DNA from: Escherichia phage 21
Strand: one strand, 5' to 3'
Length of the DNA: 42,931 bases
Sequence record: OL657228.1
A program made the translations under genes and the position numbers. The notes under the pieces are model-generated. The model saw only the letters and a program-made list of their open reading frames with translations. It did not search any database and was not told the DNA's origin. How positions within the stretch are numbered: position 1 is the first letter of the stretch; each line of letters opens with the position of its first letter. Of the stretch, positions 2,638 through 21,294 are shown piece after piece.

Positions 2638-2827
2638 ACTGCAGGCGCTGCGTCAGGCGCGCCTTGATTTATTAACCGGTAAACGGGTGGTGTCTGTCCA
2701 GAAAGATGGTCGCAGAATTGAATATACGGCGGCTTCTCTGGATGAGCTTAACCGGGCGATCAATGATGCGGAGTCGGTACTGGGGACAACCCGGTGTCGC
2801 CGTCGTCCGCTGGGAGTGAGGTTATGA
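2621..2827 (+). CDS. W: head-tail joining protein W
   Basis: 68 aa; LTGKRVVSVQKDGRRIEYTAASLDELNRAI matches recalled lambda gpW; overlaps A stop. Confidence 0.88.
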   Translation: MVTVAELQALRQARLDLLTGKRVVSVQKDGRRIEYTAASLDELNRAINDAESVLGTTRCRRRPLGVRL

Positions 2828-4416
2828 AACGAACGCCTGTCCTGATTGATGTGAACGGCGTTCCGCTTCGTGAGAGTCTCAGCTACAACGGGGGCGGTGC
2901 AGGATTTGGCGGGCAAATGGCTGAGTGGTTGCCACCGGCGCAGAGTGCCGATGCGGCCCTGCTGCCCGCGTTGCGTCTGGGGAATGCCCGGGCAGATGAT
3001 CTGGTGCGCAATAACGGAATAGCGGCTAATGCGGTGGCTCTGCATAAGGATCACATTGTCGGGCATATGTTTCTGATCAGCTACCGTCCGAACTGGCGCT
3101 GGCTGGGGATGCGGGAGACCGCAGCAAAAAGCTTTGTCGATGAGGTGGAGGCGGCCTGGTCGGAATACGCCGAAGGGATGTTTGGCGAGATCGACGTGGA
3201 AGGAAAACGCACGTTCACGGAATTTATCCGTGAAGGTGTGGGCGTTCATGCGTTTAACGGCGAAATCTTTGTGCAGCCGGTCTGGGATACGGAAACCACG
3301 CAGTTATTCCGTACGCGTTTTAAAGCCGTGAGTCCGAAACGGGTGGACACGCCTGGACACGGTATGGGGAACCGTTTTCTGCGGGCCGGTGTGGAGGTCG
3401 ATCGATATGGCCGTGCCGTCGCGTACCATATCTGTGAGGATGATTTTCCGTTCTCTGGTAGTGGACGATGGGAACGGATCCCGCGTGAACTTCCCACCGG
3501 GCGTCCGGCCATGCTGCATATTTTCGAGCCGGTGGAGGACGGGCAGACCCGTGGGGCTAATCAGTTTTACAGCGTCATGGAACGGCTGAAGATGCTCGAT
3601 TCCCTGCAGGCAACACAGCTTCAGTCGGCCATAGTGAAGGCGATGTATGCAGCGACGATTGAAAGTGAACTTGATACCGAAAAGGCCTTTGAATATATCG
3701 CCGGCGCGCCACAGGAGCAGAAGGATAATCCGCTTATTAATATTCTGGAGAAGTTTTCCAGCTGGTATGACACGAATAACGTGACACTGGGCGGTGTCAA
3801 AATTCCGCACCTTTTCCCTGGTGATGATCTGAAACTACAGACTGCGCAGGATTCAGACAATGGATTTTCTGCGCTTGAACAGGCGCTGCTGCGGTATATC
3901 GCCGCCGGTCTTGGCGTTTCCTACGAACAGTTGTCCCGTGATTACTCGAAGGTCAGTTACTCAAGTGCCCGCGCCTCCGCCAATGAGTCGTGGCGCTATT
4001 TTATGGGGCGGCGAAAATTTATTGCGGCCCGGCTGGCCACGCAGATGTTTTCCTGCTGGCTGGAAGAGGCACTTCTTCGGGGGATTATTCGTCCGCCACG
4101 GGCACGTTTTGATTTTTATCAGGCGCGATCAGCCTGGTCACGGGCAGAGTGGATTGGTGCCGGAAGAATGGCCATTGACGGGCTCAAGGAAGTCCAGGAA
4201 TCAGTGATGCGCATTGAGGCCGGACTGAGCACGTATGAGAAAGAGCTGGCGCTGATGGGCGAGGATTATCAGGACATTTTCCGCCAGCAGGTCAGGGAAT
4301 CTGCTGAGCGGCAAAAAGCCGGACTCTCACGTCCGGTGTGGATAGAGCAGGCGTATCAGCAGCAGATAGCGGAGAGTCGTAGGCCGGAAGAGGAGACAAC
4401 ACCACGTGAGACGTAA
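2824..4416 (+). CDS. B: portal protein (gpB)
   Basis: Start at MKRTPVLID (ORF-track start +30 nt); high similarity to lambda gpB (FEPVEDGQTRGAN.FYSVME, QTAQDSDNGFSALEQALLRYIAAGLGVSYEQLSR). Confidence 0.92.
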   Translation: MKRTPVLIDVNGVPLRESLSYNGGGAGFGGQMAEWLPPAQSADAALLPALRLGNARADDLVRNNGIAANAVALHKDHIVGHMFLISYRPNWRWLGMRETAAKSFVDEVEAAWSEYAEGMFGEIDVEGKRTFTEFIREGVGVHAFNGEIFVQPVWDTETTQLFRTRFKAVSPKRVDTPGHGMGNRFLRAGVEVDRYGRAVAYHICEDDFPFSGSGRWERIPRELPTGRPAMLHIFEPVEDGQTRGANQFYSVMERLKMLDSLQATQLQSAIVKAMYAATIESELDTEKAFEYIAGAPQEQKDNPLINILEKFSSWYDTNNVTLGGVKIPHLFPGDDLKLQTAQDSDNGFSALEQALLRYIAAGLGVSYEQLSRDYSKVSYSSARASANESWRYFMGRRKFIAARLATQMFSCWLEEALLRGIIRPPRARFDFYQARSAWSRAEWIGAGRMAIDGLKEVQESVMRIEAGLSTYEKELALMGEDYQDIFRQQVRESAERQKAGLSRPVWIEQAYQQQIAESRRPEEETTPRET

Positions 4417-5911
4417 TCTTTCACACATTATTGCCGCAGCATTCAATGAACCGCTGCTTCTGGAGCCCGCCTATGCGCGGGTTTTCTTTTGCGCGCTCGG
4501 GCGCGAGATGGGGGCAGCAAGTCTTTCGGTACCACAACAGCAGGTACAGTTTGATGCTCCCGGAATGCTGGCTGAAACGGACGAGTACATGGCCGGAGGT
4601 AAACGACCGGCCCGTGTTTACCGGGTGGTGAACGGTATTGCTGTACTGCCGGTGACCGGCACGCTGGTGCACCGGCTGGGTGGTATGCGGCCATTTTCCG
4701 GAATGACAGGCTATGACGGCATTGTCGCCTGTCTTCAGCAGGCAATGGCGGATAGCCAGGTGCGGGGCGTACTGCTGGACATTGACAGTCCGGGCGGGCA
4801 GGCCGCCGGCGCGTTTGACTGCGCTGACATGATTTACCGCCTCCGTCAGCAGAAGCCGGTCTGGGCACTGTGCAATGACACGGCCTGTTCTGCAGCCATG
4901 CTGCTGGCGTCGGCCTGCTCCCGACGGCTGGTTACCCAGACATCCCGTATCGGCTCCATTGGCGTGATGATGAGCCATGTCAGCTATGCCGGTCATCTGG
5001 CGCAGGCCGGTGTGGATATCACGCTGATTTACTCAGGGGCGCACAAGGTGGATGGCAATCAGTTTGAAGCGTTGCCGGCAGAGGTTCGCCAGGACATGCA
5101 GCAGCGGATTGATGCGGCGCGCCGGATGTTTGCCGAAAAAGTGGCGATGTATACCGGTCTGTCTGTTGATGCCGTCACGGGAACAGAGGCTGCCGTTTTT
5201 GAAGGTCAGTCCGGCATTGAGGCCGGGCTGGCGGATGAATTAATCAATGCGTCGGATGCCATCAGTGTGATGGCCACGGCGCTGAACAGTAATGTCAGAG
5301 GAGGCACTATGCCGCAATTAACTGCAACGGAAGCCGCCGCGCAGGAGAACCAGCGAGTGATGGGGATCCTGACATGCCAGGAAGCGAAAGGACGTGAACA
5401 GCTTGCCACGATGCTGGCAGGACAACAGGGCATGAGCGTTGAACAGGCCCGGGCGATTCTGGCCGCGGCGGCACCGCAGCAGCCGGTGGCATCCACGCAG
5501 AGTGAAGCCGATCGCATTATGGTGTGTGAAGAAGCGAACGGTCGTGAACAACTGGCGGCAACGCTGGCGGCGATGCCGGAGATGACGGTGGAAAAAGCCC
5601 GCCCGATCCTGGCTGCTTCACCGCAGGCGGATGCCGGACCATCACTCCGTGATCAGATCATGGCACTGGATGAGGCAAAAGGGGCTGAGGCGCAGGCTGA
5701 ACAGCTGGCTGCCTGCCCGGGAATGACAGTGGAGAGCGCCCGGGCTGTGCTGGCTGCGGGATCAGGTAAGGCAGAACCGGTCTCTGCATCCACAACCGCC
5801 ATGTTTGAACATTTCATGGCGAACCATTCACCGGCAGCGGTACAGGGTGGCGTGGCACAGACGTCAGCAGACGGTGATGCGGACGTGAAAATGCTCATGG
5901 CCATGCCATGA
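4406..5911 (+). CDS. C: head maturation protease C with nested in-frame scaffold (Nu3-like) C-terminal region
   Basis: 501 aa; N-terminal two-thirds align to lambda gpC (AFNEPLLLEPAYARVFF, SIGVMMSHVSYAG, ITLIYSGAHKVDGN). The C-terminal part carries three tandem copies of the motif present once in lambda (ILNCEEAHGREEQARVLAETPGMTV...). Nu3 internal start not placed. Confidence 0.88.
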   Translation: MRRNLSHIIAAAFNEPLLLEPAYARVFFCALGREMGAASLSVPQQQVQFDAPGMLAETDEYMAGGKRPARVYRVVNGIAVLPVTGTLVHRLGGMRPFSGMTGYDGIVACLQQAMADSQVRGVLLDIDSPGGQAAGAFDCADMIYRLRQQKPVWALCNDTACSAAMLLASACSRRLVTQTSRIGSIGVMMSHVSYAGHLAQAGVDITLIYSGAHKVDGNQFEALPAEVRQDMQQRIDAARRMFAEKVAMYTGLSVDAVTGTEAAVFEGQSGIEAGLADELINASDAISVMATALNSNVRGGTMPQLTATEAAAQENQRVMGILTCQEAKGREQLATMLAGQQGMSVEQARAILAAAAPQQPVASTQSEADRIMVCEEANGREQLAATLAAMPEMTVEKARPILAASPQADAGPSLRDQIMALDEAKGAEAQAEQLAACPGMTVESARAVLAAGSGKAEPVSASTTAMFEHFMANHSPAAVQGGVAQTSADGDADVKMLMAMP

Positions 5912-5947
5912 AGTCAGTGCTGACCATCAATAGGAGGTTTTTACAAT

Positions 5948-6295
5948 ATGGTGACGAAAACCATCACTGAACAGCGTGCGGAAGTACGTATTTTTGCCGG
6001 TAATGATCCGGCTCATACCGCCACAGGCAGCAGCGGGATTTCCTCGCCAACACCGGCACTGACGCCCCTGATGCTGGATGAAGCCACCGGGAAACTGGTG
6101 GTCTGGGACGGACAGAAAGCCGGTAGTGCGGTTGGCATACTGGTACTGCCGCTTGAAGGCACAGAGACGGCGCTGACGTATTACAAGTCGGGAACCTTTG
6201 CGACGGAGGCAATCCACTGGCCTGAAAGTGTGGATGAACACAAAAAGGCCAACGCCTTTGCTGGCAGTGCCCTGAGTCACGCGGCGCTGCCGTAA
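5948..6295 (+). CDS. D: capsid decoration protein D
   Basis: 115 aa; NDPAHTAT...TPLMLDE...GKLVVWDG...GILVLP...YKSGTF resembles lambda gpD. Confidence 0.88.
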   Translation: MVTKTITEQRAEVRIFAGNDPAHTATGSSGISSPTPALTPLMLDEATGKLVVWDGQKAGSAVGILVLPLEGTETALTYYKSGTFATEAIHWPESVDEHKKANAFAGSALSHAALP

Positions 6296-6352
6296 CACGT
6301 TATCAGGCCACCGCGGTGGCCTGACTGATTTCTGAATGAAAGGAACTGATTT

Positions 6353-7381
6353 ATGGGATTGTTTACGACCCGCCAGTTACTCGGTTATACCGAACAAAAA
6401 GTTAAATTTCGTGCGCTGTTTCTGGAGCTGTTTTTCCGCCGTACGGTGAATTTCCATACCGAAGAGGTGATGCTGGACAAAATTACCGGAAAAACGCCGG
6501 TGGCGGCCTATGTCTCCCCGGTTGTTGAAGGAAAAGTGCTGCGTCATCGTGGTGGTGAAACCCGCGTGTTGCGTCCGGGCTACGTCAAGCCGAAACACGA
6601 ATTTAATTACCAGCAGGCGGTTGAGCGCCTTCCTGGTGAAGATCCATCTCAACTGAATGATCCGGCTTACCGCCGTCTGCGTATCATTACCGATAACCTC
6701 AAACAGGAAGAGCACGCGATTGTCCAGGTGGAAGAAATGCAGGCGGTAAATGCTGTGTTGTATGGCAAATACACCATGGAAGGAGACCAGTTCGAGAAAA
6801 TTGAGGTCGATTTTGGCAGGTCGACGAAGAATAACATCACTCAGGGTAGTGGTAAGGAGTGGTCAAAACAGGATCGTGACACGTTCGATCCTACACATGA
6901 TATTGACCTCTACTGCGACCTGGCCAGCGGTCTTGTGAATATTGCCATTATGGACGGTACCGTCTGGCGTCTTCTGAATGGTTTTAAGCTGTTCCGCGAA
7001 AAACTGGATACCCGTCGCGGTTCAAATTCTCAACTCGAAACGGCAGTGAAAGATCTGGGCGCAGTGGTGTCCTTCAAGGGGTATTACGGCGATCTGGCCA
7101 TTGTGGTGGCGAAAACGTCTTATATAGCAGAAGACGGTATCGAAAAACGTTATCTTCCAGATGGCATGCTGGTTCTGGGGAATACTGCTGCAGATGGGAT
7201 CCGTTGTTACGGTGCCATTCAGGATGCTCAGGCGTTGTCCGAAGGTGTGGTGGCCTCTTCCCGTTATCCGAAACACTGGCTGACGGTAGGGGATCCCGCC
7301 CGTGAATTTACCATGACGCAGTCCGCGCCGCTGATGGTGTTGCCGGACCCGGATGAGTTTGTGGTGGTACAGGTGAAATAA
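6353..7381 (+). CDS. E: major capsid protein E
   Basis: 342 aa; strong similarity to lambda gpE (DTRRGSNS.LETAVKDLG, GDPAREFTMTQSAPLMVLPDPDEFVVVQ). Confidence 0.93.
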   Translation: MGLFTTRQLLGYTEQKVKFRALFLELFFRRTVNFHTEEVMLDKITGKTPVAAYVSPVVEGKVLRHRGGETRVLRPGYVKPKHEFNYQQAVERLPGEDPSQLNDPAYRRLRIITDNLKQEEHAIVQVEEMQAVNAVLYGKYTMEGDQFEKIEVDFGRSTKNNITQGSGKEWSKQDRDTFDPTHDIDLYCDLASGLVNIAIMDGTVWRLLNGFKLFREKLDTRRGSNSQLETAVKDLGAVVSFKGYYGDLAIVVAKTSYIAEDGIEKRYLPDGMLVLGNTAADGIRCYGAIQDAQALSEGVVASSRYPKHWLTVGDPAREFTMTQSAPLMVLPDPDEFVVVQVK

Positions 7382-19227: not shown

Positions 19228-21294
19228 GTGAATATGGCAGTACAGATTTCAGGCGTGCTGAAAGACGGTGCAGGAAAACCGATACAGAACTGCACCATTC
19301 AGCTCAAAGCAAAACGTAACAGCACCACGGTTGTGGTGAACACGGTGGCCTCAGAAAATCCGGATGAAGCCGGACGTTACAGCATGGATGTCGAGTATGG
19401 CCAGTACAGCGTTATCCTGCTGGTTGAAGGTTTTCCGCCTTCACATGCCGGGGCCATCACCGTGTATGAGGATTCTAAGCCGGGGACATTGAATGATTTT
19501 CTGGGCGCTGCAACAGAAGATGATGTTCGTCCGGAGGCACTGTATCGTTTTGAAAAGATGGTGGAAGAGGTGGCACGCAACGCTGAAGCCGCCTCTCAGA
19601 GCGCAGCGGCAGCAAAGAAATCAGAAACAGCAGCGGCATCGTCCAGGAATGCGGCGAAAACATCAGAGACGAATGCAGGTAACAGCGCGAAAGCGGCAGC
19701 TTCTTCAAAAACAGCCGCACAAAACGCAGCAACAGCGGCAGAACGTTCAGAGACAAATGCCCGTGCGTCAGAAGAAGCCTCCGCAGACAGTGAAGAGGCT
19801 TCCCGCCGTAATGCAGAGTCAGCCGCTGAAAATGCCGGAGTCGCCACCACAAAAGCGCGGGAGGCCGCAGCAGACGCAACAAAGGCCGGGCAGAAAAAGG
19901 ATGAGGCTCTGTCGGCAGCGACACGGGCTGAAAAGGCGGCAGACCGCGCAGAAGTCGCAGCGGAAGTGACTGCAGAGCCCTATGCGAATATAGTGCCGCC
20001 GCTGCCTGATGTGTGGATACCGTTTAACGATTCACTGGATATGATTGCGGGTTTTTCTCCGGGCTATAAAAAAATAGCTATTGGTGACGATGTGGTTCAG
20101 GTCGCCAGTGATAAACAGGTTAATTTCAGTCGCGCATCAACGGCAACATATATCAACAAATCTGGCGAACTGAAAACGGCGGAAATTAATGAGCCGCGAT
20201 TTGAGTGTGATGGCCTGCTTATTGAGGGACAAAGAACGAACTACATGCTCAATTCGGAAAGTCCAGCCAGCTGGGGGAAGTCATCAAACATGGATGTGCC
20301 CGAAACCGGGACAGATAGTTTTGGTTTTACTTATGGAAAGTTTGTCTGCAACGATTCTCTGGTTGGGCAAACTTCGGCTATTAATATGGCATCAATTGCT
20401 GCAACAAAGTCAGTTGATGTCTCAGGCGATAACAAGTACGTGACAACCTCATGCCGTTTTAAAACAGAACGACAGGTAAGGTTACGTATACGGTTTGATA
20501 AGTATGATGGTAGTGCAACAACTTTTCTTGGCGATGCGTACATTGATACGCAAACGCTTGAAATTAATATGACAGGTGGGGCTGCCGGCAGAATTACGGC
20601 ACGAGTCAGGAAGGATAAGACCACAGGCTGGATTTTTGCAGAGGCAACGATTCAGGCAATTGATGGTGAGTTAAAAATAGGCTCTCAGATACAGTATTCT
20701 CCTGAGCGGGGTGGGGCAACAGTATCTGGTGACTATATTTATCTTGCCACCCCACAAGTAGAGAATGGGCCGTGTGTATCATCATTTATTATTTCAGGAG
20801 GCAGCGCAACGACAAGAGCCAGTGATTTGGTTAGTATCCCCACCAGAAATAATCTTTATAAGTTACCATTTACTTTTTTACTTGAGATTCATAAAAACTG
20901 GGATATTGCACCAAACGCCGCACCCCGCGTGTGGGATATAGCAGCAGCCAATACCGGGCAATCAGCAATTGCAGCAATCAACAGAGGTAGTGGTAAGTTA
21001 TATATGAGTCTGTCAAACCCTTCAGGCTTGTATGTTAATAGCGCAGCGACAGATGTATTTGCAGAGAAAACCACATTTGGATGTATTGCAAAAGCTGATG
21101 GTCACTTTCATGTGGTGACAAATGGTAAAGCGGTTAATGAAGTTTATTGTGAATATAATGGTGTGACCGCTGATAAAAATATCCGATTTGGAGGGCAGAC
21201 GAATACTGGAGAACGACATCTGTTTGGCCATATTCGCAATTTCCGCATATGGCATAAAGAATTAAATGACAGGCAATTAAAAGAGGTCGTATGA
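19228..21294 (+). CDS. stf: side tail fibre protein (Stf-like N-terminus, unrelated C-terminal domain)
   Basis: 688 aa; first about 90 aa near-identical to lambda Stf (MAVQISGVLKDGAGKPIQNCTIQLKA...), then an Ala/Ser/Glu-rich repetitive shaft, then a C-terminal half from about aa 250 with no Stf similarity and visibly lower GC. Confidence 0.8.
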   Translation: MNMAVQISGVLKDGAGKPIQNCTIQLKAKRNSTTVVVNTVASENPDEAGRYSMDVEYGQYSVILLVEGFPPSHAGAITVYEDSKPGTLNDFLGAATEDDVRPEALYRFEKMVEEVARNAEAASQSAAAAKKSETAAASSRNAAKTSETNAGNSAKAAASSKTAAQNAATAAERSETNARASEEASADSEEASRRNAESAAENAGVATTKAREAAADATKAGQKKDEALSAATRAEKAADRAEVAAEVTAEPYANIVPPLPDVWIPFNDSLDMIAGFSPGYKKIAIGDDVVQVASDKQVNFSRASTATYINKSGELKTAEINEPRFECDGLLIEGQRTNYMLNSESPASWGKSSNMDVPETGTDSFGFTYGKFVCNDSLVGQTSAINMASIAATKSVDVSGDNKYVTTSCRFKTERQVRLRIRFDKYDGSATTFLGDAYIDTQTLEINMTGGAAGRITARVRKDKTTGWIFAEATIQAIDGELKIGSQIQYSPERGGATVSGDYIYLATPQVENGPCVSSFIISGGSATTRASDLVSIPTRNNLYKLPFTFLLEIHKNWDIAPNAAPRVWDIAAANTGQSAIAAINRGSGKLYMSLSNPSGLYVNSAATDVFAEKTTFGCIAKADGHFHVVTNGKAVNEVYCEYNGVTADKNIRFGGQTNTGERHLFGHIRNFRIWHKELNDRQLKEVV

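Follow-up and report, generated by a model that had tools for sequence, protein, structure and literature searches.

In phage lambda the transient scaffold Nu3 has its sequence in common with the C-terminus of the prohead protease C (PMC3224144). Nu3 has C, B and Nu3 itself as interaction partners, together with E in yeast two-hybrid analysis; it is broken down before the DNA is packaged, and C is reported to degrade it (PMC3224144). The scaffolds of phages P22 and phi29 bind the N-arm of the coat protein through a short helix-turn-helix (PMC11922011), which in P22 is likewise a short C-terminal helical module of a transient scaffold. Tandem three-helix-bundle binding modules, such as those of staphylococcal protein A and the affibodies and the albumin-binding domains, are also among the closest described systems. 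Here we analyse gene 5/6 of Escherichia phage 21, contained in a stretch of 42,931 nt (record OL657228.1) that is called the window throughout, and to which all coordinates refer. The scaffold domain encoded by this locus contains three tandem copies of a ~45-residue unit that is present once in lambda.

Gene 5 (4406–5911, plus strand, GTG start) is an open reading frame (ORF) encoding a 501-amino acid (aa) S49 prohead protease whose C-terminal part is a scaffold domain; it is the homologue of lambda gpC. At the DNA level gene 5 matches positions 4572–6077 of GenBank M81255.1 (‘Bacteriophage 21 head gene operon’), in which the coding sequence is annotated, with 100% identity over 1,506 nt. The sole significant Pfam domain in the product is Peptidase_S49 (PF01343; aa 146–293, 4841–5284 on the plus strand; E = 3.7e-35, 121.6 bits against a cut-off of 24.9). 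This domain matches the SppA structures 3rst and 4kwb (E ~ 1e-16 in a PDB sequence search), and a PDB search with the whole gene 5 protein returned SppA proteases only, covering the protease domain alone. On alignment Ser162 (within N-D-x-x-C-S-A) and Lys214 (within S-G-x-H-K-V-D-G-N) are identical between the phage 21 and lambda proteins, and by analogy with SppA we take these to be the candidate catalytic residues.

Gene 6 (5309–5911, plus strand; coding sequence AAA32344.1 in M81255.1) is nested in frame within gene 5, and encodes the 200-aa scaffold gp6, the analogue of Nu3. Its annotated start is the internal in-frame ATG at 5309, preceded at a distance of 4 nt by the strong Shine–Dalgarno sequence AGAGGAGG (5297–5304, plus strand), given as a putative ribosome-binding site in M81255.1; a separate gp6 is thus a predicted product. 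The sequence aGGAGGcact immediately before this ATG is kept in two relatives (loci L083 and L085). Two phage protein families are matched, each by three separate stretches corresponding to the repeats: phrog_8940 (the Nu3 ‘capsid assembly protein’; E = 9e-30) and phrog_8399 (‘head scaffolding protein’; E = 1.6e-34). The order of the head module is the same as that in lambda, running from portal through protease/scaffold and decoration protein to major capsid protein. By these comparisons genes 5 and 6 appear to be a nested protease–scaffold pair of the lambda gpC/Nu3 type. That assignment had been made from the DNA alone in the original prediction, and the Pfam match, the M81255.1 annotation and the lambda alignment all agree with it.

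The three units lie on the plus strand within the part common to genes 5 and 6, in the last 190 residues of the gene 5 product. Unit 1 comprises aa 314–358 of gene 5 (ENQRVMGILTCQEAKGREQLATMLAGQQGMSVEQARAILAAAAPQ; 5345–5479), unit 2 aa 367–407 (EADRIMVCEEANGREQLAATLAAMPEMTVEKARPILAASPQ; 5504–5626) and unit 3 aa 414–455 (LRDQIMALDEAKGAEAQAEQLAACPGMTVESARAVLAAGSGK; 5645–5770). From the start of one unit to that of the next the distance is 150 nt and then 141 nt. Pairwise identity between them is 45–61% in aa sequence. Unit 3 is the most divergent copy, in which the GRE motif has become GAE. Smith–Waterman scores between the units are 83–101, compared with 22–25 ± 4–5 for composition-preserving shuffles (z = 11.6–18.2). 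None of the shuffles reached the observed scores, and the similarity is therefore not caused by the Ala-rich composition of the region. The peptides quoted for the three copies in the original prediction are exact. A partial fourth repeat following unit 3 (AMFEHFMANH) was considered and rejected; it is better read as part of a conserved C-terminal tail, corresponding to ALDRLMQGAP in lambda. The tail comprises aa 456–501 (…AMFEHFMANHSP…KMLMAMP; 5771–5908, plus strand), and is homologous to the sequence following the single unit of lambda (…ALDRLMQGAP…DLLNTPV).

The triplication is not new. M81255.1, which we take to be the record of Smith and Feiss 1993 (Gene 126:1–7), contains three repeat regions, described there as ‘function unknown; putative’. 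In window coordinates these are the ‘Tri1 box’ (5376–5479, translating to QEAKGREQ…APQ), the ‘Tri box’ (5516–5626, IMVCEEANGREQ…SPQ) and the ‘Tri3 box’ (5657–5770, IMALDEAKGAEAQ…GSGK). They fall inside units 1, 2 and 3 respectively. The boxes encode these same three motifs, and since the DNA is identical to that of M81255.1, the repeats of genes 5 and 6 are the known Tri boxes of phage 21.

Lambda gpC has 439 aa and one unit (ENSRIMGILNCEEAHGREEQARVLAETPGMTVKTARRILAAAPQ), compared with 501 aa and three units in phage 21; both the lengths and the copy numbers had been given correctly beforehand. Over residues 3–346, including the S49 domain, the two proteins are 54% identical. Identity of the lambda unit with copies 1, 2 and 3 of phage 21 is 64, 61 and 44%, respectively. 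Copies 2 and 3, linkers included, add 97 aa to the phage 21 protein, a longer tail adds 7 aa and there is 1 aa more besides, while 43 aa are missing upstream of unit 1; together these give the 62-aa excess. Most of the upstream deficit is a 36-aa Thr/Ala/Asp-rich linker that precedes the unit in lambda and is missing from phage 21. Nu3 (201 aa) and gp6 (200 aa) are consequently of equal length but unlike composition, as their starts also differ. The annotated start of lambda nu3 is Met239, located within the protease domain, while the start of gp6 is Met302 of the gene 5 protein.

In lambda the annotated nu3 start, Met239 (MDATRQ), has no obvious Shine–Dalgarno sequence, and the corresponding codon in phage 21 specifies Ile. 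Met309 of lambda gpC (MTKETQ) is homologous in position to the start of gp6, and its ATG directly follows caGGAGGgcga. The short scaffold form (P0110) is sometimes chosen by gene callers. Because a Shine–Dalgarno sequence is found at Met309 and none is obvious at Met239, lambda may make an additional, shorter scaffold; alternatively the two phages may truly differ in the position at which the scaffold starts.

Among the enterobacterial prophages of the phage 21/Gifsy lineage the triplication is old. The prohead protease STM2605 of the Salmonella prophage Gifsy-1 has three units in the same order as phage 21, within a gene that has diverged overall (72% DNA identity over part of its length). 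Units at matching positions in the two proteins are 77, 78 and 60% identical, compared with 46–55% for units at different positions. Copy 3 of Gifsy-1 retains the canonical GRE that is lost from that of phage 21. Three units are also found in prophages of Providencia, Shigella and Escherichia albertii. The triplication is therefore older than the separation of these head modules, and each of the copies has been maintained since then. A neighbour-joining tree of the units (some 40 columns, and weakly resolved) places all copy-1 units together with those of lambda and other phages that have a single copy; copies 2 and 3 form a separate group that is mostly sorted by position. Unit 1 is thus the apparent orthologue of the single copy of lambda. 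It stayed lambda-like, and copies 2 and 3 were inserted between it and the conserved tail.

The divergence of the copies within phage 21 itself leads to the same conclusion. It had been suggested beforehand that the repeats might result from recent replication slippage or from misassembly of a repetitive region. Both the tandem layout and the near-constant period are what slippage would generate, and related lineages do show true expansion and contraction, in the form of a four-copy variant with a repeat at the DNA level and of two-copy variants (see below). However, Tandem Repeats Finder returned no rows from the window DNA at a minimum score of 30, and a repeat search of the DNA found fragments of 12–25 nt only and no array. 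The codon-aligned nucleotide identity between copies is 53–66%, and at third positions it is 34–41%, against 28% expected from composition. By the NG86 method synonymous divergence (dS) is saturated at 1.5–1.9, while non-synonymous divergence (dN) is 0.28–0.59, with dN/dS of roughly 0.16–0.40. The nucleotide repetition that had been proposed as a check is therefore not present in usable form, which counts against a recent origin, and the low dN/dS suggests that all three copies have since been held under purifying selection. An artefact is equally contradicted by the exact match to M81255.1, which was determined independently, and by the presence of the same three copies in 1,864 complete genomes of Escherichia coli and in Gifsy-1. 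Slippage or misassembly is in consequence scarcely credible as an explanation of the repeats. An alignment of relatives had also been proposed as a check; the three divergent segments proved to be common to Gifsy-1, the Providencia, Shigella and E. albertii prophages and the viral contigs described below. Both of the outcomes that had been named beforehand as refuting were therefore obtained, and recent slippage or an artefact is refuted.

The array is stable and widespread in its own lineage. Three units are present in 79 of the 80 best IMG/VR loci, the remaining locus ending at a contig edge; these viral contigs are near-identical loci, and so inform on stability rather than diversity. The gp6-coding segment was found in 1,870 of 5,426 complete E. 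coli genomes, with at least 80% coverage in 1,864 of these, and among the E. coli matches listed every segment is exactly 603 nt long. Its occurrence in so many complete genomes excludes an assembly artefact. We are confident of the overall explanation, and all but certain of the identity, age and architecture of the triplication on their own.

Beyond this lineage the unit normally occurs singly. A profile of the unit was searched against 1.84 billion representative proteins, of which 428 match with E ≤ 1e-3, and copies were counted by local re-scanning of the 143 listed matches that were new to that search. One copy was found in 131 of these proteins, two in 7 and three in 5, so that a single copy is the norm. 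Fifty-three of the single-copy proteins have at least 380 aa (median 442), and in these a median of 53 residues separates the end of the unit from the C-terminus. The other 78 are short (median 135 aa), being Nu3-like ORFs or fragments; the matches in a search for gp6 homologues were likewise mostly fragments. Single-copy examples extend to the alpha-proteobacteria (Hoeflea, Rhizobium and Loktanella), whose C-terminal tails are basic and quite unlike the others. Twelve positions are conserved at 83–96% across 160 units (I, E, A, G, R, E, A, L, A, M, A and L), and the consensus is ErsRgILaCeEAKGREaLArhLAetPGMTVEqAkaILAAAP. Among the elements of Nu3-type scaffold domains the ~45-residue unit is the best conserved.

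Departures from both one and three copies were also found. An E. coli variant (P0026, at 1–1043 of locus L137; GCA_032727965.1) has four units and lies beside a lambda-type D/E head module. Its units 2–4 are 76–78% identical in DNA, and here Tandem Repeats Finder does detect an array, with a period of 138 and 3.7 copies. This array is a younger expansion that is specific to its lineage. Contractions to two units are rare: in P0022 a hybrid junction joins copies 1 and 2, with exactly one 50-aa period gone, while in P0018 copy 2 is missing. P0130 is a non-enteric, stand-alone scaffold with two copies that arose by an independent duplication. The array is also subject to decay. P0016 is among the natural E. 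coli contraction and decay variants, P0095 has a larger in-frame deletion that begins at the end of the protease domain and reaches into copy 2, and P0079 and P0088 are frameshifted, pseudogene-like versions.

By structure prediction the unit is a small module of three helices. A single unit modelled by AlphaFold2 (AF2; 18 sequences) has a predicted local distance difference test (pLDDT) score of 82 and a predicted template modelling (pTM) score of 0.64, with helices at residues 3–17, 25–32 and 39–48. The conserved E-A-K-G-R-E stretch is placed in the loop between helices 1 and 2. The model of the complete gp6 (mean pLDDT 69, pTM 0.29; 15-sequence alignment) repeats the pattern of helix, short turn, helix and helix three times, and adds two helices in the tail (gp6 residues 160–173 and 191–196). 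Foldseek gave no match to the model with E ≤ 0.001, no PDB sequence matches the unit profile, and Pfam and NCBIfam contain no family covering the repeat. The Pfam helix-hairpin-helix family (HHH) matches the unit below threshold (E = 0.097), and an identity as such a motif was rejected. Nor was there any significant profile or fold match between the unit and the coat-binding helix-turn-helix domain of P22-type scaffolds. Lambda gpNu3 is reportedly intrinsically disordered, and for this reason the fold of the unit may form only upon binding.

In function the unit is most likely a small module for protein–protein interaction, here in repeat, within the core of the transient scaffold, and the lineage-specific C-terminal tail would contact the coat protein. 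This division is favoured because the unit is near-invariant, while the tails, and presumably the coats, differ strongly. It is favoured also by the MD8-like phages, in which protease, scaffold and coat are fused, and where the similarity to the scaffold domain of lambda breaks off 40 residues short of the end of that domain (PMC8508860); that would be expected if the tail is the coat-facing element. The partner of the unit would most probably be as conserved as the unit itself, the two candidates being a further scaffold unit and the S49 protease domain. The same modules would bring the protease into the prohead, and proteolysis by gp5 would remove them at maturation. In this scheme the scaffold is normally monovalent, and gp6 would be its trivalent form. 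The more specific proposal, that the unit is a homotypic or protease-docking module, is tentative, and we hold it with somewhat less than even confidence.

Alternatively the units might themselves bind the coat protein, in the manner of the P22 helix-turn-helix, so that a single gp6 chain, with its three units, would hold three gp7 subunits. The precedent of P22 and phi29 and the two-hybrid interaction of Nu3 with E both point in this direction, as do the compact helical form of the unit in the AF2 model and the weak likeness of its helix 1–turn–helix 2 segment to the helix-hairpin-helix noted above. The analogy with P22 is functional only. No sequence similarity or significant fold similarity of the P22 scaffold to the phage 21 unit was found, the P22 module is present as a single copy, and there is no fused protease. 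Given also the variation of tails and coats around an almost constant unit, coat binding by the units is rather unlikely. The unit could instead be chiefly a site of recognition or cleavage by the S49 protease, with the repeats ensuring that the scaffold is cut into pieces small enough to exit the prohead. The unit is always accompanied by an S49 domain, or is found in a nested or adjacent ORF; its most conserved stretch, E-A-K-G-R-E, lies in an inter-helix loop; and C is the reported protease for Nu3 in lambda. Yet the conserved hydrophobic positions (I, A, L, A, M, V, A and L) are spread over three helices, as is typical of a module that is folded or able to fold and not of a linear site of cleavage. 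We regard a primary role in cleavage as quite improbable, and a protein-interaction module of the scaffold core remains the preferred reading of the unit.

In the surroundings of the locus, the ORFs at 2794–4416, 5948–6295 and 6353–7381 of the window are annotated in M81255.1 as gene 4 (portal), shp (decoration protein) and gene 7 (major capsid protein), respectively. Two antisense ORFs on the minus strand (5206–5517 and 5653–5904) are taken to be chance ORFs of a G + C-rich coding region. Rfam has no match at the locus, and promoter-like sites are at the level expected from shuffling (1, compared with 0.9). Terminator-like sites, all of which are downstream of gene 5/6, number 4 compared with 1.8 ± 1.4, and so are not in clear excess. 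The gap between shp and gene 7 contains a perfect 9-bp G + C-rich hairpin (TCAGGCCACCGCGGTGGCCTGA; 6303–6324, plus strand), and the tail after it is poor in T. Instead of being a terminator, this hairpin could act in translation or in mRNA stability. The best match to the right two-thirds of the window (positions 20000–42931) is phage ev017, with only 86% coverage and 98% identity, unlike the head genes, which are identical to those of phage 21. Among the ev017 features underlying the match are a porin (OmpC/NmpC-like) and SitA. This is lambdoid mosaicism of the ordinary kind.

Some entries in the databases are not what they seem. About 25 assemblies of unrelated organisms, including Bradyrhizobium, Enterococcus, Kitasatospora, Paenibacillus, Veillonella, Marinifilum and others (loci L092–L114, L119, L120, L123 and L126), contain a gpC C-terminal segment identical in aa sequence to that of lambda, or one residue different. 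These are usually located on tiny or ~48.4-kb contigs of low coverage, and are almost certainly lambda DNA contaminating the assemblies. A Gifsy-like gpC fragment of 258 aa (P0176) has Ala to Val, Thr to Ile or Met, Ser to Phe or Leu, and Pro to Leu substitutions throughout. This is the pattern anticipated for C-to-T converted DNA, as from bisulfite-type reads, and the fragment appears to have been assembled and gene-called from such DNA.

As a discovery the triplication has little weight. The public record of phage 21 has carried it for three decades (since 1993), and roughly one in three complete E. coli genomes has it. A modest residual value lies in the unit itself, as the best-conserved piece of the lambda-type scaffolds and one that lacks a solved structure. 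The comparative picture of this scaffold unit may not have been described before. Taken at its broadest, the core of Nu3-type scaffolds would be a three-helix module of variable copy number, present in one to four copies and duplicated independently, where the number of copies sets valency and tunes the kinetics or fidelity of assembly. The independent duplications would be those of the enteric three-copy clade, the four-copy E. coli variant and the non-enteric two-copy P0130. As a whole this generalization is doubtful, and we consider it unlikely as it stands. The natural one-, two-, three- and four-copy versions provide a ready series for relating scaffold valency to capsid assembly, which would also be of use in the engineering of lambda-like particles. 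If the generalization is true, the variable number of units would set the valency of the scaffold in these phages, and in this way tune the kinetics or fidelity of prohead assembly.
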